Source of the DNA: Candidatus Obscuribacterales bacterium
Lineage (GTDB): Bacteria; Cyanobacteriota; Vampirovibrionia; Obscuribacterales; Obscuribacteraceae
Direction: 5' to 3'
Length of the DNA stretch: 64,000 bases
Assembly: GCA_965228855.1 (NCBI GenBank)
Contig: CBDDIJ010000003.1
Span: 2,304,001 to 2,368,000 of the forward strand
This document shows positions 25,369-37,714 of this stretch, in pieces (positions within the stretch are counted from its first letter, which is position 1; every line of letters starts with the position of its first letter). A program made the translations under genes and the position numbers. The notes under the pieces were generated by a model, which worked only from the letters and a program-made list of their open reading frames with translations, had not been told where the DNA came from and searched no databases.

Positions 25369-27516
25369 ATGTTTCGTCCGACAATTTCTCACATAGGGTT
25401 GCTAGTCGTCTTCTTCTTACTGACGTCGGAGTTGCTATTTGTCGGCGTACTGAAATTTCAACTCGATGACCTCAATGCGAAACTCGCACAGGAAGAACGA
25501 AAGCGAGAAGTGGTCGAACTCCTGAACGACTCGGCAGCGCACTTGCAGAGCTTCTATGTGCAGATGATTCGTGATACCAACATCGTGCAATTTAAGGACA
25601 GACGAAGCCTGATCAAAGAGTTTGAAGTTCACAAGGTGGCAATTGAACGGAACTTCGAAGAGCTCCAGAAACTTCTGAAAGACCAACCCGAAGAGCTAAA
25701 AAAAATTAGTCGATATCAGCAAGAGAAGACGAGGGCGATGTCTACCCTGCTTGTTGGATTTACAGACAGACCGGACGTACTGTCGATAAAAAAAATCAGC
25801 AAAATAATGAAGTTCTTTCGGAAAGAATCTTTGCACTCCAGACTCCTGGCAAAATCATATAGCGCCGAAAACAAGTCAAATCCGGAGCAGGATATCGCGA
25901 ATGTTCAAAACCTGCTAATAGTCGGTCTCCTGATGAACCTCATCACAGCAGTGGCGGCTAGCTTTTTCTTCTGGAAATATGTGGCGAGACGCATCAACAT
26001 CGTCACCGAAAACATAGCGAGACTTTCTGCCGATGAACCTTTGCATGACCGGCTAGACGGGCAAGACGAGGTAGCAACAATCGACTCGGCTTTCCACTTT
26101 CTTAGCGATGAAATTTTAGCTGCCGCAGAGAGAGAGCGCTCGTTCGTAGAGAACTCTACAGATGTGATCTGTACAATCGACAGTAAAGGCTACTTCCGCG
26201 AAGTGAGCCCAGCAGCAAAACTGCAATGGGGTTATGACCCTGACGAACTCATCGACAGAGAAGCCACCAAAGTCCTTGGAATAAGAAACATCCCCGACAT
26301 ATTCACAGCAGACCCGTCGACAATCTCGAAAGACGCACACTTCGCGCTAGACGAGCGCGTGCGAAAAGCAGACGGATCATACATCGATACACTTTGGTCA
26401 GCCCATTGGTCTCCAACCGACGGATCACTTTTCTGTTTCGTTCGAGATCGGACGGACAGCAAACGTGCAAGTCGCCTCTTGGAGGAACAGGAAAATCAGG
26501 TGCGCAACGCCATTGAGAATCTGCCTGTCGGAATTCTGACGACTGATGTCGAAGGAGCAATACATCAATCCAATCAAATGGCCAGACGGCTTCTGGCGAA
26601 ACCTGACTTAGCAAATCAAAACGTCAACAAACTTCTCGTTGTCGAAGGCGCTAAACATAAAACAATCCAACAGGCTTTGACCGACCCGACTGTACCCACT
26701 CCGATCCGCTGCACCACCAGTAGTGCTGTAGGGAGTAAAACATATACCGACGTCTCTCTCGGCAAATCGACTACGCAGCTCTCAGATAGTCTGGTCATTA
26801 TTTTTGAAGACGCAAGCGAGCGAGTACGTCTTGAGGAAATCAAACAAAATTTCGTCTCACTCCTCGGCGAGAGCTTGCGCTCACCGCTTAACGAAGTGCG
26901 CACGATTGTTCGGGAAGAACTCCAGGTCAGCCAATCTGAATTGGCGAAAAAACGCATGACACGGATTTTGCCGAATATCGAAAGACTGCTCAAGTTGCTT
27001 GACGGGCTCCTGGACATTGAAGGTCTGGAACCCGGAAAGTTGGTGGGAATTCTCGAACCATGCGAGCTGGCAGATATCATCGAGCAATCAGTCAATGCAG
27101 TTTTCGATCATGCAGAGCAACAAAGCATATCGATTGACTATGCTCAAACAAAATGTACTGTCCTGGCGGACCCACAGCGATTGGTCCAGGTGATTATCAA
27201 CCTGCTGACCAATGCAATAAAATACTCGCCCGCCGGTTCACGAGTCTATATAGATACAGTTTCACTCGATGATTCAATAGAACTTCGCATCGTCGATGAA
27301 GGACGCGGATTGCCCGCCGAAATGCATGAGACGATTTTCCAGTCATATGTCCAAAGCCAGAAAGATGATGCCCGGCGTGGGAGCGGAACCGGGCTTGGTT
27401 TGGCGATCTGCAAACAGATCGTGCAGGCCCACAACGGCAGAATTGGAGTCCGGAGCGAAGTCGGCAAAGGAAGCACTTTCTGGATTGAACTTCCAATCGA
27501 GGGTGAGCGCGCATGA
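25369..27516 (+). CDS. Membrane HAMP/PAS sensor histidine kinase-like protein; intact HATPase, H-box His replaced by Glu
   Basis: Two TM helices, HAMP (DEVAT), two PAS domains, FVSLLGESLRSPL, NLLTNAIKYS, DEGRG, GTGLGLAICK. Confidence 0.88.
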   Translation: MFRPTISHIGLLVVFFLLTSELLFVGVLKFQLDDLNAKLAQEERKREVVELLNDSAAHLQSFYVQMIRDTNIVQFKDRRSLIKEFEVHKVAIERNFEELQKLLKDQPEELKKISRYQQEKTRAMSTLLVGFTDRPDVLSIKKISKIMKFFRKESLHSRLLAKSYSAENKSNPEQDIANVQNLLIVGLLMNLITAVAASFFFWKYVARRINIVTENIARLSADEPLHDRLDGQDEVATIDSAFHFLSDEILAAAERERSFVENSTDVICTIDSKGYFREVSPAAKLQWGYDPDELIDREATKVLGIRNIPDIFTADPSTISKDAHFALDERVRKADGSYIDTLWSAHWSPTDGSLFCFVRDRTDSKRASRLLEEQENQVRNAIENLPVGILTTDVEGAIHQSNQMARRLLAKPDLANQNVNKLLVVEGAKHKTIQQALTDPTVPTPIRCTTSSAVGSKTYTDVSLGKSTTQLSDSLVIIFEDASERVRLEEIKQNFVSLLGESLRSPLNEVRTIVREELQVSQSELAKKRMTRILPNIERLLKLLDGLLDIEGLEPGKLVGILEPCELADIIEQSVNAVFDHAEQQSISIDYAQTKCTVLADPQRLVQVIINLLTNAIKYSPAGSRVYIDTVSLDDSIELRIVDEGRGLPAEMHETIFQSYVQSQKDDARRGSGTGLGLAICKQIVQAHNGRIGVRSEVGKGSTFWIELPIEGERA

Positions 27517-29750
27517 GCACCCAGGACAACCAGTTGCGTCTTGATTTGACCAGGAAAGCCGTTCTTCTCTTTGCGGCAATCTTCATCGTGGAAGCTTTGT
27601 ATGTAGGCATTATTGCAAGCATGCTCTGGCAAACATCGAACAGCATTAAGAGGACTCAAGAATCCAGAGTGGTGGTTCAAGCCGTGGGAGAAGTCGCATA
27701 CGGGGCACAGGAGATAGTTGGGGAACTGCTCGAAGGATTTTTTAATGATGTGCTTCATCAGCCGCACAGACCGATCAAGATCTCTGCGGAGAAACGGCTG
27801 AAGATGATGGCGGACAATCTCGAAGAAGCACTTAAAAACGATAACTCACAAAAATCGATCGTCCGGGACATTAAGGAGATGTGCACAGATTCAGTACCAC
27901 CTCTGGTGAAAGATCTGAGGGAAGCAAACTGGGGCGATCCTGGCGATACAAGACGCTTCTCGATGATTCGGCTCGATGAAGTGAATGCAGATCTCATGCA
28001 CAGATTGGACGATATAACCAGCGTTTACGGCAAAGCTAAAGCAGATGCCGCGGCTGAACTTACATCACATACCAGCCTGTCCGCGACAACAGCAATTGTT
28101 CTCGGCTTTGTCGTAAATGCAGTTATCGCGCTCTTGCTCTATTTCGCGTTCATCAATGGAATCACCAGGCGTCTTTCAAAAATCGCGGAGGACATCTCGT
28201 TAGTAGCGAGCAAGAAGCAGCTACCCGCGACTGCTGCGAACCTCAAAGATTCGGCTGATGAAATCGATATGCTTGCTTACGAGATCAGGAAAATGTCGGA
28301 GAACTTCTCGGAAATTCAAAGTAAAGAGCGAACGCTTTTTGAAAACGTTCCAAGCATTATGTGCGCCATCAATGAGGACGGCCTAATTATGAGCGTAAGC
28401 CCTGGTAGCTCCGTTCTCTGGGGATATGATGCCGACGAGTTAGTTGGGAAACGAATGAGCGAGGTCTTTCACGATGCTGCGTTAGTTGAGGTAGCGCAAA
28501 AGTTGGAAGCGCTGTTCGAGGATGATGTCAACGAGATTGATTTCCAGGCAGCAGTCAGCACGAAAAAGCAGGAACGTCTGCAAGTGGCGTGGAAAGCGCG
28601 TCTTTCCGAAGACGGCACCGCCCTCCTGATTGGACACGATGTGACAGAAGAAGTAGAGGCACTCGATAGGATAAAGAACAGCGAGGAAGAGTTTAGAGCG
28701 ATAGTCGACAAAATGCCGATTTCGGTCGTCACGCTCGATGAGAACTATTCGATAACTTCAGTCAACGAAGCGACACAGGAGATGTTCAACACGCCGCCAC
28801 AGGCACTACTTGGGCGAAACATAGGCGCGCTCATCGCTGGCGCCACCACAAGCGGTGCCTCTGGAGCACAAGTTTTAGACCTTCTCTCATTGTCCGAAAA
28901 GAATCCGGTATCGCTGAACGTCGGTTACGATAAGGATTCAGTATTGCCGGTAGAAGTGAACACCAGCACTTACGTCAACGCGTACGCAAGAAAAACTTAC
29001 CTTGTAACATTGCAGGATATTTCTGTTCGCACAGAGATAGAAAGAGTCAAACAAGATTTTGTGGCAATGATCAGTCATGACTTACGGTCGCCGCTGACAG
29101 CCCTGTTCGGCACTTTGGAAACACTGGTTGAAACAACCGATGACAATCAGAATTCCGATAGCGCCGATAACGATTCGCCTCGTGAAAGCGAACCGGACAA
29201 GCCGTTGCTCAGGGCCAAAAACATCGTCTCCGATCTCGTCAATTTGATAAACGATTTTCTCGATCTCGAAAAGTTCGAAGCCGGGCGAGGTGTTTTGGAC
29301 CAGAGGAAAGAGCCGTTGCGAGACATTCTCAAAGAGACGATAGCCTCCATGCCAAGACTCGCAGGCGAACGAGTAACCACCTCTGCCTCGATTGAATCGC
29401 CAGTTCAAATAAAAATCGACCACGACCGTATGTTGTTTGCCCTGACAAACTTTCTGTCTACTGTTTTGCAATACTCAAGTGAGACTTCCAAAGTCAACGT
29501 GAGCGTTTTCAAAGATCAAAACAGTATCTCAGTGAGTTTCGCATGCCCGGAATTCGCCTTGCCCGAGTCTGTACGAAACTCATGCCTGTCGCGATATGAG
29601 TTTCAACCCGCAGCCAAAAATTCAATCCTGGATTCAAGCGGTCTGGCGCTTGCTCTATCGCGCGCGATAGTCCTGGCCCATGCAGGCAGCGTCACCTTTT
29701 CAGATGACCTGGGGACTCAAGCGATTATTATTCAAATTCCTACTGCCTGA
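27513..29750 (+). CDS. Membrane HAMP/PAS sensor histidine kinase-like protein; intact H-box, degenerate HATPase
   Basis: Same architecture; [14 protein letters not shown]-box [10 protein letters not shown], no DxGxG, G2 reduced to SGLAL; ATGA overlap with the previous gene. Confidence 0.85.
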
Positions 29751-31863: not shown

Positions 31864-34800
31864 ATGCGAACAATTCCGAAGGAGCGGATACTTAGAGTCA
31901 ACTGTGCCGGATATGGCACGGACGCTCATTGGAATCTGGGCCGAGCAAAGAGCCTGAATAACTACAGTGCGATTATCGTCAATCCGACCAGTATCGCTCA
32001 CCTATTTGACAAGGACCCGGAGCTGGTCCGGAAGGTTGAGCAATGCCTGGCTGAGGGACTGACTTCTCTCACCGTTGATGACGATTTATTACTACGCAAC
32101 CTCGCCGCCGAGATCGACAGCCGAGTGTTGGAGCTTTCAGATTTTCTGACTCAAGGTGGAGTGCTCGTTTACTTCCTTTGCCGACCGTTTGTCATTCAGG
32201 GACCGAGCCTGTCACTGGACAATTACTATTGGCTTGAGAGTCTTGCGCCGGATCAGCCGGCAGAAAGAAACGTCCGTCACATGAGCGCCGTTTCGCACGG
32301 GCGGTTAATCGAACCTACGGCAGATGGCATGACGTCTGACTTCGGTCCGTATTTGCAACAGCACGGACTTGAATGGAGCACGCTGATCAGAACCGAATAT
32401 CTGACCGACGGTTATAACGTGCTGGCGGAAGCGGGTGCCAGGAAGTGCATTGCCGGACAGCTCTTTATAGTAGAGAGCAGTGGCAATGTAGTCTTTTTGC
32501 CGTCACCGTACTCACCGGATTTCGATAAAACTCTTATAGACTGCTTGAACAAATGGTATCAGTCTAAAGAACAAACCCAGGAAGAGCTCGATGCAGAGCG
32601 CCTGGAGATTCAAATGGCGGGCTCCGGTGTGAGCACGCCGGCCCCCCAGACGGGCCCCGCACTTTTCGATCGCGAACAAAATGCGTTTGAGCCTGCAGCA
32701 TCAGTCGAGATGGAAACAGCTCCAGCGGCTCCAGTTTCCGAGACGGATTCGGGCTTCAGTTTCAGCGCCGACCGAATAGCCGAATCGATTTCTCAGGACG
32801 CTCGAAAGTTTGAAGAGGAAGTTGCAAATCGCGTGCAAGAACCGAAGAAGACTCTGGGCAACATAGACTTGTCGATTTTCGCTCAAACGGCTCAACAACT
32901 AGTTCAAAAGGCAACCAAACCAGCAGAGCCGACAGTGCAAGATGAACCAGCGCAGGAAGCGGTGCAAGAACCTGCACCAGTGTCCGAGCCGTCAGCAATT
33001 GCAGAATCTGCGCCTGTCGCAGAACCTGAGTCAGTTGCGCAGGAAGCACCGATTCACGAACCGGCCGCCGAAATTCCGCAGGCGCCAGAACCAGAACCTT
33101 TGCCTGAGCCGATCGCGGAGAGTGCTCCGGCTGTCGATACCACTCCTGAATATGCACTTCCTGCAGAAAATGTGATTCAACCCGCCGAGCCCGATCCAGA
33201 AGAATCTATTCAATCAACTGGCGGTCAATCGCTCAGAAACATACTTTCGCATGCGGCGCCCACCGTCCCGGAGAGCGTGATGCCTCAGTCCGTATCACCG
33301 GCACCAGAGGTGCTACAAGAACCAGATGCGGCACAGCAGCCGTCACCACCTGCGATGGCACCAGCGCAAGCGCCGGCGTCGGCAGCGTCCTTGTTCGAGG
33401 ACGACGACGACGAATTCGGTAATGCAGAAGAATTAGCAAGACAAGCCGCAGCACAGGTGGCGCAATCAAATTCCGGAGCATATGCTCAGCCGCAGACAGC
33501 CCCGGCTCCTGCGGAGTCGTACTCAGATTCCGGTGTCTACAGCAGTCAGGCAGCGGATTACAACTACACTCGATCCGGCGCGTTTGAACAACCGCAGGTT
33601 GAACCGGCGCAGCAGGCATCTTCGTCGATAAGCGACTCGGGAGTTTTCAGCCAGGCTCAGCCTCAAGCGCCTGCAGCCGAGCTCTCGCCAGCTCCGACAC
33701 CAGAACAAAGAATTGTGACGCCACCACCGGCGGAGTCAACAATTTTACAGCCACCTTCGGGATTTGCCGCCTCAGTCGGCGGACCTCAAGACACAAACGC
33801 TGCCGTTCCTCCGTCACCACCGCCCGCGCAGGAACCGCCACTACCTTCCCCTGTTAACGCATCTGCTGGAGACAATTCTGTGACTAACGACCCCAACAAC
33901 AAATCTACAATGGATCTCCTTCGCGAACTCGAAAAAGCTCAGCGGCCGCAAGAGCATGAAGCGCCGCCACAAGCGATCCCGCCAGCGACTTCGCAAGTCA
34001 TGACTGCACCTGTTCCGGAGAACGGAACTCCCGCCAGACCTTTGCTCAATAACCTTTTCAAAAAAGACGCCGCCGACATGGCGCCTATTGAATCGCCACT
34101 ACCCGCAGTGCCACCTGCGGTTCCGCAAGCGATGCCTCAAACCACTCTTCCGCCGCCAGCGCCAGCAAGAAACACGCTTGGCGCGCTTATGCCAGCGGCA
34201 GAGTCTAGACCACAGGAAAGTTTCCCCTTGATGTCGAAGGATAACAACATGTCAAATCAGAACGTCCCGGACTGGTGCAGTGCTTACTCCTTCTCATATC
34301 TTGACGAATTGAAAAAGGAACAGAATGCTCTTGCCACACAACTGCAGGATGTTCAAGCAAAACTCAATACGGTAGAGTCCAAAATTTCGTCAGTAGAACA
34401 GCTGAAAAATGCGTTGTTAGCCGGCGAGGGCGAAGCACTGAAGGAAGCAGTCGGAATGGTTCTCGGTAAGTTGGGTTGGACAATCAACCACAACAACGCC
34501 ACACCGAACGAAGTTCTTTTGCTTAATGTCGATCAACCGGAAGCTCTCGTTCGCATCGTTCGCAGCGACAGCCATTGCGACCGCTCCGAAGTCGCCCATG
34601 TATCCGGCTCGGCAATCGCTTTCTGGGAAAAGCACGACATTGAACCAAAAGGCTTACTGATCGCTTGCACCTGGGCGAATATGAGCCCTCAAAGCCGTAA
34701 CCAACGAGATTTCGAAGAGGCTGTTTCGGAATTCGCACGCAAGAAAAATCTCTGCTTGATGACAACACTGCAGTTGATCGGCATCTATCGAGACCTCGAG

Positions 34801-34905
34801 CTGGGGCTCGTAACCCAAGATACGGTTCGTCGTCAGATGTTGGAAACCAGTGGCTGCCTCGTCGGCTACTCAGTTGAGGCCGGCATGGTCGGCGCACGCG
34901 CATAG
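31864..34905 (+). CDS. Large hypothetical protein: globular N-domain, long Pro/Glu/Ala-rich linker, coiled coil, C-terminal alpha/beta domain
   Basis: 1013-aa ORF; low-complexity middle; heptads LKKEQNALATQLQDVQAKL; C-terminal KGLLIACTW...FARKKNLCLMTTLQL. Confidence 0.8.
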   Translation: MRTIPKERILRVNCAGYGTDAHWNLGRAKSLNNYSAIIVNPTSIAHLFDKDPELVRKVEQCLAEGLTSLTVDDDLLLRNLAAEIDSRVLELSDFLTQGGVLVYFLCRPFVIQGPSLSLDNYYWLESLAPDQPAERNVRHMSAVSHGRLIEPTADGMTSDFGPYLQQHGLEWSTLIRTEYLTDGYNVLAEAGARKCIAGQLFIVESSGNVVFLPSPYSPDFDKTLIDCLNKWYQSKEQTQEELDAERLEIQMAGSGVSTPAPQTGPALFDREQNAFEPAASVEMETAPAAPVSETDSGFSFSADRIAESISQDARKFEEEVANRVQEPKKTLGNIDLSIFAQTAQQLVQKATKPAEPTVQDEPAQEAVQEPAPVSEPSAIAESAPVAEPESVAQEAPIHEPAAEIPQAPEPEPLPEPIAESAPAVDTTPEYALPAENVIQPAEPDPEESIQSTGGQSLRNILSHAAPTVPESVMPQSVSPAPEVLQEPDAAQQPSPPAMAPAQAPASAASLFEDDDDEFGNAEELARQAAAQVAQSNSGAYAQPQTAPAPAESYSDSGVYSSQAADYNYTRSGAFEQPQVEPAQQASSSISDSGVFSQAQPQAPAAELSPAPTPEQRIVTPPPAESTILQPPSGFAASVGGPQDTNAAVPPSPPPAQEPPLPSPVNASAGDNSVTNDPNNKSTMDLLRELEKAQRPQEHEAPPQAIPPATSQVMTAPVPENGTPARPLLNNLFKKDAADMAPIESPLPAVPPAVPQAMPQTTLPPPAPARNTLGALMPAAESRPQESFPLMSKDNNMSNQNVPDWCSAYSFSYLDELKKEQNALATQLQDVQAKLNTVESKISSVEQLKNALLAGEGEALKEAVGMVLGKLGWTINHNNATPNEVLLLNVDQPEALVRIVRSDSHCDRSEVAHVSGSAIAFWEKHDIEPKGLLIACTWANMSPQSRNQRDFEEAVSEFARKKNLCLMTTLQLIGIYRDLELGLVTQDTVRRQMLETSGCLVGYSVEAGMVGARA

Positions 34906-34911
34906 GGTTCA

Positions 34912-34964
<53 letters not shown>

Positions 34965-34993
34965 CTACTGGAATGGGGATCGCGTGAGCCAAA

Positions 34994-37714
34994 GTGACTA
35001 CACTACCAACTGTACTGATTTCAGGTGCTTCCGAGGAGCTCACGGCGAGGATCGAGCAGCTCATTCGAGGTCAGGCCGAGCTGTCTTTAGTAGAAAGTGT
35101 CACCCCTGATGCGGCCGCGAATCGAGATTTCAAAGCAAAACTCGTGTGGGTTGAACTTGAGTCAGACCCTGAAGCTAACGTCGCCCTCCTTGAGAGTTTG
35201 ATCAAGTCACATCCCAATACATTCTTTGTGGTTAGCAAAGAAGATCTTGAACCGGAACTCGTGAAGCGAGCGATGCAAGTTGGAGCTCTCGACTTTCTGG
35301 ATCACAAAGGCTGGGCGGCACAGATTCGAAGCGTCGTGCGCCGCATCATGGCAAAAGAGTTCGGATCAAAACCGACACAAGGAGCAGGCGGTCTCTCAAG
35401 ACAGCCTTCTCGCCAGTCCTCATGGGGACAACTCAACAGTGTGAAAGTGGCTCCCAATGCAGGCGGTTTCAAACGCGCCGAGCCCAATCGTCTTGCAGCA
35501 GCCCAATCACCACAGCCTCAACCGGTTCAGAAGCCAGCCCCAGCGGCTCCCAGTCCTGTGGCAAAACCGGCAGCACCACCACCGCCACCACCTGCGGTGG
35601 AACCGGAGATAGCCGAAGAAGATGAAGAAGTATTAGAGCAACCATTTGAGGAACCAACTCTTCCGGAGGCTGATGAACCTGTCGAAGAGAGCGAAGCGGG
35701 TTACGCGTCGGGCACCTCATACGAAGAACCTGAAGCCGAGTATCAGCAACAAAACTACGAAAACGAAGAAAGCGAACAGACAGGCGAACTCGAAGAATAT
35801 CCCGAAGCTTCAGGCGATGAAGCATACGCCCAAGGCGAAAACGATTTTGCGCAGGACAGTGAAACAAGCGCTGGTGGTGAAAACACAGACGATGCTGTAT
35901 ATCAGGGCGAACTAGGCGAGGCTTCGGGCGACGAGGACTCCCGGGCTGAGGATGGTTATACTGTCCAGGAGCAGCACGGAGAAGAACCAGTCTTCCAAGA
36001 TCAGTCCTTTGAGGATCCACAGTCGCCCGGGGAATTCGAATCGGAACCTGAGCAGCAACCGGAACTTGAATCGGAGTCGGAAGCGGAAGCGGAGCCGGAG
36101 CCGGAGACGGAACCAGAACCAGAACCAGAGCCAGAGCCAATCGCCGAGAAAGCAGTAAAGATCGAGACACCACAGGCGGTGAAACCCAAAGCACGCTGGG
36201 ATGATCTCGACTCTTTGATTTCAAAGGAAGCACCAAAAGCGGCAGCTGAAAAGAAACCCGCAAGCAAGTGGGGCGAACTCGGCAGCATCCAACCTAAGAT
36301 TTCAAAGGAGCCGACTCCATCCTCCGACAAGAAGTGGTCGGATCTCGACGCCATAGTAGCACCGAAATCGCCCGCTTCATCAGAGTCTCCGGCTGGTTCT
36401 ACCAGCAAGTGGGGCGACCTCGACTCTATCAGCGCGATAAAGTCAGAAGGAAGCGAGGAAGAAAACGAGACAGTTGAATCAAGCCCAGCTTCGAGCAAAT
36501 GGGGAGATCTCGACTCGATAGGAAAAGCGGATTCTGAATCCGAGCCGGAACCGCCGGAGTCCGTCGAAAGTAGCTCGGGCGACTTAGATTCGATAGGCGC
36601 AACTCCTAAAGCATTCGGAAAAACAGAAACGGGTCCATCCAGCAGCAAGTGGGGCGATCTAAATTCAATCGGCGCAAAGAAAGAAGAGCCAGTTGAGCCC
36701 GGAAGCAAATGGGGCAATTTAGATACAATCGGCTCCAGGGGTGGAGGCGGACTAAAATCCAATGCGCGCTCTTTTATCAAACCGAAAACGCCAGGTGAAT
36801 CACCGACTCGAACTAACAGCGGGCTGGGGGCATTTGCAGACCTGGGTCTAGCACCGGGTCAGGCGGATGCTGGTAGCGCATCCGGTGGCACTTCCGAGCC
36901 CAGCACCAGTCAATCAAAGTGGGGAGATTTGGGCGGTATTGGCTCAGGTAGCCCTGCCGGAAGCGAAAGCTCCTCGAGTGACTCCGAAAGTCCCAGTTCA
37001 GGACTCGCAGGTAATACAGGGCTCGGAGCGGGCACCGGTCTTGGTGGCGGAACCGGTCTCGGTGCAGGAGCTGCAGGCGGTCTGGGCAAACCGGTGGGCG
37101 GTGACGTCGACTCAAACCCGTCGGCTTTTAAGAACAGATTTGGAAGAAAGACTCAAAATATTGACTTAGCGACGTCGAATCCTCAGGACGCTTTGACTGG
37201 TAGCTCTGGTAGCGGCGCAGCCCCGCAAGCCGGCGGTCCCGGTAAATGGGGCAACCTCGACGCGATTGGCACTGCCGGCGGTGGCTCAGCTGGCGGCAGC
37301 CCAGCAGCCGGTTCCGCAGAATGGGGTGACCTGAGTTCGATACCAACTCCCAAATCCGCTCAAGAAGCAAGCGGAGGAAACTGGGGAAGTCTCGATTCAA
37401 TTCCAACACCAAAGGGTCCGGGAGAATCAGGGCCTACGCTTGTTGAAGGCGCTCTTCCAAAATCGCGTGCTCGAAACGAAGCATCTGAGAAATGGAAATC
37501 GGGCATGGGTGCAGAACTATCAGAAGGTCAGCGAGAATTAGGTGAACTCGCCGATAAACTAAAAGAGAAAGCGGCTGTTCGAGTTAAAGTTTCCGGCGGA
37601 TGGAAACAAGCAAGTATCGCCCTGGCTGTTGCAATCGTCGCGACGGTAGGCTACTTGAGCGTTGCCTTCTTCAGTGTTCCTGAGCCACCGCCGGAAATCG
37701 AAACAAACAATTAG
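34994..37714 (+). CDS. Protein with an N-terminal atypical receiver-like (CpaE-like) domain, long acidic disordered region with KWGDLDSI-type repeats, and a C-terminal TM anchor
   Basis: LVKRAMQVGALDFL receiver-like C-terminus with E in place of the phospho-Asp region (LVWVEL); repeated motifs; TM SIALAVAIVATVGYLSVAFF. Confidence 0.8.
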   Translation: MTTLPTVLISGASEELTARIEQLIRGQAELSLVESVTPDAAANRDFKAKLVWVELESDPEANVALLESLIKSHPNTFFVVSKEDLEPELVKRAMQVGALDFLDHKGWAAQIRSVVRRIMAKEFGSKPTQGAGGLSRQPSRQSSWGQLNSVKVAPNAGGFKRAEPNRLAAAQSPQPQPVQKPAPAAPSPVAKPAAPPPPPPAVEPEIAEEDEEVLEQPFEEPTLPEADEPVEESEAGYASGTSYEEPEAEYQQQNYENEESEQTGELEEYPEASGDEAYAQGENDFAQDSETSAGGENTDDAVYQGELGEASGDEDSRAEDGYTVQEQHGEEPVFQDQSFEDPQSPGEFESEPEQQPELESESEAEAEPEPETEPEPEPEPEPIAEKAVKIETPQAVKPKARWDDLDSLISKEAPKAAAEKKPASKWGELGSIQPKISKEPTPSSDKKWSDLDAIVAPKSPASSESPAGSTSKWGDLDSISAIKSEGSEEENETVESSPASSKWGDLDSIGKADSESEPEPPESVESSSGDLDSIGATPKAFGKTETGPSSSKWGDLNSIGAKKEEPVEPGSKWGNLDTIGSRGGGGLKSNARSFIKPKTPGESPTRTNSGLGAFADLGLAPGQADAGSASGGTSEPSTSQSKWGDLGGIGSGSPAGSESSSSDSESPSSGLAGNTGLGAGTGLGGGTGLGAGAAGGLGKPVGGDVDSNPSAFKNRFGRKTQNIDLATSNPQDALTGSSGSGAAPQAGGPGKWGNLDAIGTAGGGSAGGSPAAGSAEWGDLSSIPTPKSAQEASGGNWGSLDSIPTPKGPGESGPTLVEGALPKSRARNEASEKWKSGMGAELSEGQRELGELADKLKEKAAVRVKVSGGWKQASIALAVAIVATVGYLSVAFFSVPEPPPEIETNN
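35417..37402 (+). repeat. Dispersed coding repeat (S/G)KWG(D/N)LD(S/A)I, about 13 copies
   Basis: SSWGQLNSV, ARWDDLDSL, SKWGELGSI, KKWSDLDAI, SKWGDLDSI x2, SSSGDLDSI, SKWGDLNSI, SKWGNLDTI, SKWGDLGGI, GKWGNLDAI, AEWGDLSSI, GNWGSLDSI. Confidence 0.9.

Follow-up and report, generated by a model that had tools for sequence, protein, structure and literature searches.

Reciprocally defective histidine kinase pairs in an Obscuribacterales bacterium and its relatives: candidate heterodimers with a single active site

The HK1/HK2 locus

We investigated two overlapping histidine kinase genes, here called HK1 and HK2, in a 64,000-nucleotide stretch of a Candidatus Obscuribacterales genome (assembly GCA_965228855.1, contig CBDDIJ010000003.1, positions 2,304,001 to 2,368,000), hereafter the window. 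Each protein carries a dimerization and histidine phosphotransfer (DHp) domain and a catalytic ATP-binding (CA) domain. An earlier note, made from the letters alone, had read the pair as split, HK1 having an ATP site without the phospho-accepting histidine (His) and HK2 the His without the ATP site. This reciprocal loss is confirmed, with every motif present where it had been placed. The features are as follows, in window coordinates (aa, amino acids; TM, transmembrane).

25369-27516, + strand: HK1 gene, 715 aa; 2TM, four-helix sensor, HAMP-like, PAS-PAS, His-less DHp, intact ATP-binding CA; putative ATP donor protomer
25450-25902, + strand: HK1 periplasmic four-helix-bundle sensor (CHASE3/4HB/NarQ-like), approximate bounds
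26869-26871, + strand: HK1 Glu501 (GAG) at the phospho-His position, within FVSLLGESLRSPL; Ser502 replaces the next acidic residue too
26983-26985, + strand: HK1 Arg539, DHp helix-2 Arg at profile position 38; putative docking point for HK1's own active CA
27199-27228, + strand: HK1 N-box, intact, starting at residue 611 (N611 and N615)
27295-27309, + strand: HK1 G1 box DEGRG, intact, residue 643
27385-27399, + strand: HK1 G2 box GTGLG, intact, residue 673
27513-27516, + strand: ATGA stop/start overlap of HK1 and HK2
27513-29750, + strand: HK2 gene, 745 aa; layout of HK1, intact H-box, CA catalytically dead but predicted to fold; putative His donor protomer
27615-28094, + strand: HK2 periplasmic four-helix-type sensor, approximate bounds
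29076-29093, + strand: HK2 H-box H522-D-L-R-S-P; phospho-His CAT at 29076-29078, with Asp523, Arg525 and Ser526
29259-29273, + strand: HK2 helix-2 Leu583 to Lys587, profile positions 47 and 51, His-flanking, retained in 64/64 His donors
29448-29477, + strand: HK2 N-box, dead, residue 646; Thr650 for the essential Asn, the N-4 Asn (N646) retained
29544-29558, + strand: HK2 G1 remnant CPEFA
29634-29651, + strand: HK2 G2 remnant SSGLAL (SGLAL at residue 709); leucines kept, two of three glycines gone

Compared with a canonical HisKA class I kinase, HK1 alone lacks the phospho-His and its acidic neighbor (E501-S502) and carries the N, G1, F, and G2 boxes, and both its sequence and Pfam (HATPase_c 107 bits, HisKA no match) agree with the earlier reading of intact ATP boxes next to a Glu for His. 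HK2 alone carries the canonical H-box and lacks the ATP-binding N, G1, and G2 motifs; in Pfam it scores 48.7 bits for HisKA and 21.6 bits for HATPase_c, under the cut-off of 26.4. The previously described losses in the ATP boxes of HK2 stand, except that the G1 remnant, read before as ACPEF at residue 677, becomes CPEFA in the alignment, where the G1 Asp falls on C678. The dead CA is nevertheless predicted to fold (model confidence, pLDDT, 78). By sequence, His and ATP site thus lie on separate polypeptides, as in a split or bipartite kinase. Asp523 and Ser526 of the H-box would correspond to the general base and the phosphatase position, respectively (PMC3904827, PMC3510030).

The layout proposed before for both proteins (2TM-HAMP-PAS-PAS-DHp-CA) holds in its TM helices, two of which are predicted in each orthologue from the related genome G007, and in the two PAS regions of each protein. 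HAMP receives no Pfam call in either protein; we infer it from paralogues with HAMP matches and from a NarQ-like fold match. From the second TM helix onward, HK1 and HK2 are 22% identical over 580 columns, with matched TM-HAMP-PAS-PAS spacing. The ATGA overlap is consistent with translational coupling, and a 4-nucleotide gene overlap occurs in six of the eight complementary pairs of this genome described below. HK2 further carries a long acidic insertion in the loop between DHp helices 1 and 2 (residues 540-563, 29179-29199 region).

Recurrence within the genome

Using an iterated profile, 109 kinase cores were found in the genome, among which eight adjacent, co-oriented pairs are complementary, accounting for about 15% of its kinases (16/109). 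HK1/HK2, which had been taken as a one-off, is therefore a member of a recurring system:

C2: 1245192/1242991; 1696610/1694448
C3: 509244/510703; 1908370/1906928; HK1/HK2; 3369896/3371698
C5: 789069/787192; 940969/943137

All eight His-bearing kinases that lost the N-box adjoin a His-less, ATP-intact kinase, which argues against pairing by chance, and eight of the nine His-less, ATP-intact kinases are so paired. Four divergent cores, in which no His could be aligned, were left unclassed; one is HisKA_3-like, one is CheA-like, and two are weak matches. Separately, an 811-aa kinase-like open reading frame (ORF) at C2:1273485-1275920 seems to lack both His and ATP boxes. The pairs belong to five families: family A has two PAS regions (four pairs, including HK1/HK2), B and C none, D and E one. 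Gene order differs as well, the upstream gene encoding the His donor in B and C and the His-less partner in A, D, and E. Among the His donors of family A, the length from the His to the helix-2 anchor varies between 43 and 63 residues, against 47-49 in intact kinases.

There are also two fully intact tandem pairs in the genome, C2:2414976-2418676 and C3:2881627-2885222 (L038, L039), which belong to a widespread family and are probable precursors of the split pairs. The downstream gene in this family is often already without the helix-2 Arg.

Conservation in relatives

Searches of 31 and then 107 genomes guided the fetching of 100 loci from relatives. Within this selected set, 65 adjacent kinase pairs were found, of which 61 are complementary (59 by a strict N-box test and two more when G2 loss or misalignment is allowed), four have both genes intact, and none is double-dead; the 61 span 29 genomes and 10 genera. 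Metagenome loci (78) added 12 further complementary pairs, some near-identical, and six His donors at contig edges, and a scan of named genomes matched mostly generic kinases. Among the genomes searched, family A occurs in five of the eight that belong to the genus and in a single further genus. In L194 (G041:C11) and L253, two complementary pairs stand in a row, which amounts to tandem duplication of a whole pair.

A strict orthologous pair in G007 (97% and 94% identity for HK1 and HK2) has the same motifs, and part of HK2 lies on a metagenome contig at 89% identity. The ratio of nonsynonymous to synonymous substitution rates (dN/dS) against G007 is 0.06 for HK1 and 0.08 for HK2; the His-less DHp of HK1 shows no nonsynonymous and nine synonymous changes, the dead CA of HK2 has a dN/dS of 0.067, and values for the other pairs tested are likewise well under 1. 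The orthologue comparison suggested earlier thus returned the same reciprocal losses under purifying selection on both genes. The window is also spanned by contigs from two of four sequencing runs with no differences, although these runs may be the source of the assembly. The residue at the lost-His position takes 11 kinds (S, E, R, T, D, N, Q, I, H, Y, G); since it is free to vary across pairs, Glu501 was rejected as an alternative phospho-acceptor.

Partition of catalytic and helix-2 residues

In the Michaelis complex of CpxA, one chain supplies the His, the +1 acid, and the Arg at +3, and the other supplies the N-4 residue and the N-box Asn (PMC3904827); the +1 acid is kinase-specific and the Thr/Asn at +4 phosphatase-specific (PMC3510030). 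The catalytic residues are split between the partners of the complementary pairs in just this manner: all 64 His donors have H, D/E at +1, R at +3, and T/S at +4, and all 62 His-less partners have N-4, the N-box Asn, the G1 Asp, and the F-box Phe. Only the His and the N-box Asn defined the two groups, and the remaining partitioned residues are independent of that definition.

A further prediction can be drawn from VicK, a cis-acting kinase in which R256 touches the active CA, whereas L265 and R269, beside the His, are contributed by the opposite chain (PMC3582566): in a mixed bundle acting in trans, the equivalents of L265 and R269 are expected on the His donor and that of R256 on the ATP donor. 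Helix-2 position 38 is K/R in 62/62 His-less partners and R in 7/64 His donors, whereas position 51 is K/R in 64/64 His donors and K in 24/62 His-less partners. HK1 itself has R539 at position 38 and G552 at position 51, and HK2 has D574 and K587. Every one of the five families shows the split, family E least clearly at position 51, and it is what a trans-acting mixed four-helix bundle predicts. The His donors also keep hydrophobic residues of the F-box and G2 (Phe in 45/64, Leu in 49/64), which in CpxA anchor the parked CA (PMC3904827), suggesting that the dead CA domain stays docked.

Fused double kinases

Relatives also encode single chains that contain two complete membrane kinases and four TM helices. 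The sample comprised 20 fetched regions, 18 of them taken for their long open frames; 14 contain fusions, and locus L244 adds one. Twelve of the 15 fusions are intact in both modules and three are complementary, with a His-less, ATP-intact module followed by a His-bearing, ATP-dead one:

Intact fusions: L290-L299, L301, L302; genomes G064, G065, G074, G075, G076, G077; 1006-1272 aa
Complementary fusions: L244:2700-5690; L289:524-3505; L300:853-3930

The linkers measure 20-49 residues where no PAS is present and 53-58 with one PAS, lengths that fit an intramolecular pseudo-dimer. The intact fusions look like natural single-chain dimers, and L300, close in its motifs to the intact fused family, seems to have undergone its losses recently. 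Among the 11 kinase ORFs longer than 850 aa in the genome under study, none is such a fusion.

Origins of the pairs

A tree of the DHp-CA cores recovers each of the five His-less families as monophyletic, with intact sister groups for E and C, and needs five changes. On a tree of the region from sensor to PAS, which is independent of the lost-motif traits, both halves of family E join single genes that are intact (100/100). There the intact tandem family also encloses two metagenome pairs, whose His-less genes go with the upstream genes (100/99) and whose CA-dead genes go with the downstream ones (100/99); these CA-dead genes have different intact sisters (98/96, 96/87). From the N-terminal trees, domain architecture, and gene order, at least three to four separate origins of complementary pairs are likely. 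In family A, the partner trees mirror each other (r 0.985, 0/1000 permutations, quick tree), which points to duplication of the pair as a unit. The tree of kinase cores within the genome was likewise a quick tree, built without six divergent and eight CA-dead cores. The pairs probably evolved by duplication, followed by a mixed dimer in which one His and one ATP site fell out of use and were then lost.

Sensors, output, and neighboring genes

The HK1 sensor is predicted to consist of helices throughout, and its model is similar to the four-helix bundles of NarQ, HK9, and chemoreceptors. Foldseek gave no match for the sensor at E<=0.001 (best NarQ, 0.014), and VIA-align reached Z values of up to 13.8 to generic four-helix bundles; language-model neighbors of both sensors, used as a lead only, are CHASE3/4HB clusters. 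The two sensors have diverged to the point of giving no BLASTP alignment, and their dN/dS values are 0.024 and 0.064.

As noted before, no response regulator gene is adjacent: no REC-domain ORF lies within 49 kb of HK1/HK2, the nearest being 49.6 kb away. The genome has 154 REC ORFs, 47 of which are BLAST matches to an OmpR-type query, and an OmpR-type regulator lies within 0.8 kb of three of the eight pairs, one of them in family A; the regulator of HK2, encoded elsewhere, is likely of this type too. A promoter/terminator scan stayed at chance level. At 31864-37714 lie two long ORFs of 1013 and 906 aa, low in complexity and rich in acidic residues and proline, which Pfam assigns to no family with confidence; the 906-aa ORF begins with a weakly TadZ_N-like segment.

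Proposed mechanism and alternative explanations

On the comparative evidence, we consider it quite likely that HK1 and HK2 form an obligate heterodimer with one active site, in which the ATP domain of HK1 would phosphorylate His522 of HK2 in trans. The CA of HK1 would dock on helix 2 of its own chain, at Arg539, and on helix 1 of HK2, and HK2 would provide His522 together with Asp523 as general base, Arg525, and, flanking the His, Leu583 and Lys587. The dead CA of HK2 would remain folded and probably be parked on the bundle, like the idle CA of asymmetric kinase dimers, and helix 1 of HK2 would offer the only face for regulator docking and phosphatase activity, serving an OmpR-type regulator encoded elsewhere.

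Several observations weigh against this reading or against parts of it. The loci of relatives were picked by similarity to dead-CA proteins, and their counts are enriched rather than a census. Some loci break the pattern: a His-less gene is followed by a nearly intact partner with His at N-4 in L307:1018-4079 (G068), which may represent a one-sided intermediate; a CA-degenerate gene stands beside an intact one in the metagenome locus L285; the partner in L042 keeps the His without the acidic +1; and the His donor L046:4915-7104 (G006) has one internal TAA upstream of the second PAS, as either a broken copy or an assembly error would. One His-less kinase (C5:110976-112541) stands alone: Gln replaces its His, it has an N-box and its G2 is altered, it belongs to a different clade, and no kinase gene adjoins it. 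Arg38 is retained in five of 14 family B His donors, in two of L253, and in the L244 fusion. On the DHp-CA tree, a single clade of all His-less cores was not rejected (approximately unbiased test, p-AU 0.0685), and mirrored partner trees are expected from linkage alone. As for handedness, HK853, among the closest solved relatives, acts in cis. VicK, another of these, is described as cis (PMC3582566), and for the HK1/HK2 family we infer trans. The VicK positions were mapped by counting from the numbering of that paper, and the chain to which R256 belongs was our assignment, the paper being silent on it.

The reciprocal losses and the linkage would also be explained if an HK1 homodimer transiently phosphorylated His522 of an HK2 homodimer, as CheA4 does with CheA3, for which transient binding is described (PMC3591291). 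We hold this to be improbable: it predicts the CA-docking helix-2 residues on the His donor, yet Arg38 stays with the ATP donor; the matched TM-HAMP-PAS-PAS spacing of the two chains counts against it; and the single-chain double kinases fit an intramolecular pseudo-dimer better. The pair might instead carry out no autophosphorylation, HK2 acting as a phosphatase or phosphate sink and HK1 as an ATP-binding pseudokinase that modulates an intact kinase, as DivL or RetS does. HK2 does keep the T/S+4 phosphatase position (PMC3510030), about 90 intact kinases are present in the genome while no regulator lies near HK1/HK2, and a lone His-less kinase exists. We find this reading unlikely too, for it leaves the near-constant adjacency and the complementarity of the two defects unexplained, and it sits poorly with the kinase-specific +1 acid and Arg+3 in 64/64 HK2-type proteins and N-4 in 62/62 HK1-type proteins. 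Decay or a sequencing error, which the earlier note had named as possible refutations, deserves next to no credence for HK1/HK2, and neither does an assembly error: a stop codon occurs in the His donor of one relative, but we reject all three because both frames are open, dN/dS is 0.06-0.08, other runs gave the identical sequence, and such pairs recur in 29 genomes.

The heterodimer with one active site, as proposed in the earlier note, is thus backed by comparative evidence; its further suggestion of a two-sensor AND gate, which would mean a separate ligand for each sensor, finds no support and seems doubtful. Both sensors are under purifying selection and have diverged from each other, as such a gate would have it. 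However, both are four-helix bundles, and a single composite ligand site is equally likely, because in NarQ, Tar, and similar four-helix sensors the ligand sits at the dimer interface. One sensor may also idle, just as the membrane domain of FasB is dispensable (PMC12675982).

Relation to known systems

The closest precedent is FasB/FasC of Streptococcus pyogenes, adjacent full-length membrane kinases with a proposed heterodimer in which FasB would supply the ATP domain, H246 of FasC is the phospho-accepting His, and the FasC kinase domain is dispensable (PMC12675982). HK1/HK2, by sequence, likewise combine adjacent full-length membrane kinases, a putative His donor whose CA would be dispensable and a putative ATP donor. 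However, FasB retains a candidate His (H284), and cis phosphorylation was not excluded for it, whereas the His is plainly absent from HK1. Also, the Fas operon is one locus and encodes a ComE-like regulator, whereas the present genome has eight pairs, the pairs probably arose more than once and in relatives also occur fused, HK1/HK2 have no adjacent regulator, and the regulators of sister pairs are OmpR-type.

As in HK1/HK2, His and ATP domain lie on separate proteins in CheA3/CheA4 of Rhodobacter sphaeroides, neither of which autophosphorylates alone (PMC3591291). The two CheA proteins are class II, cytoplasmic, lack whole domains, and are in transient contact (PMC3591291), whereas HK1 and HK2 are class I and lost motifs only: both are full-length chains in which Pfam finds only HisKA, HATPase_c, and PAS, and neither the Hpt (P1) nor the CheW-binding (P5) domain of class II. 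In Mycobacterium tuberculosis, Rv0600c and Rv0601c divide ATP and His between short fragments of one kinase. They provide two kinases for one regulator, TcrA (PMC3544749), and share with HK1/HK2 the use of two kinase genes in one pathway, but not the two full-length sensors. CpxA and VicK form asymmetric homodimers with one CA active and one parked and mainly one phosphorylation per dimer (PMC3904827, PMC3582566); their asymmetry is dynamic and both chains are competent, whereas that of HK1/HK2 would be fixed in the genes. DivL, RetS/GacS, and the evolved ChrS pseudokinase are defective or heteromeric signaling kinases that modulate an intact kinase (PMC9491836, PMC12189002) and, unlike HK1/HK2, are not reciprocal halves. 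A DivL-type pseudokinase would have a fixed substitute for the His and an intact partner kinase, whereas across the present pairs the His position takes 11 different residues and the neighbor of HK1 is CA-dead. In nature, heterodimers of histidine kinases are considered rare (PMC12675982, PMC9491836). We found no account of such pairs or fusions in this lineage in a literature from which subscription journals were largely missing and in which supplements were not covered. The principle of a split kinase is already known; for the scale, repeated origin, intermediates, fusions, and structural imprint seen here, the searches turned up no published account.

Conclusions

Annotation pipelines would pass both genes of such a pair as ordinary or broken kinases. 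Asymmetry with mainly one active site is known for kinase dimers, yet hard to dissect in homodimers; the pairs, if the proposed reading is true, would be tools supplied by nature, each with a single ATP site, a single His, and a single regulator face, in which half-of-sites catalysis, cis/trans handedness, and kinase/phosphatase switching become directly testable. The fused forms, already joined in one chain, would be convenient scaffolds on which to build synthetic sensors that are asymmetric or take two inputs. Single genes, intact tandems, fusions, and one-sided and complementary pairs together make up a series, a repeated natural experiment in the passage from homomers to obligate heteromers. 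We lean, by a modest measure, toward the view that this lineage routinely uses heterodimers of tandem paralogues, sometimes as one four-TM chain, and has repeatedly fixed their asymmetry by gene-level loss of one His and of the ATP site opposite, giving one-active-site receptors with asymmetric sensor heads, for which every stage from single gene to fused pseudo-dimer would be represented.

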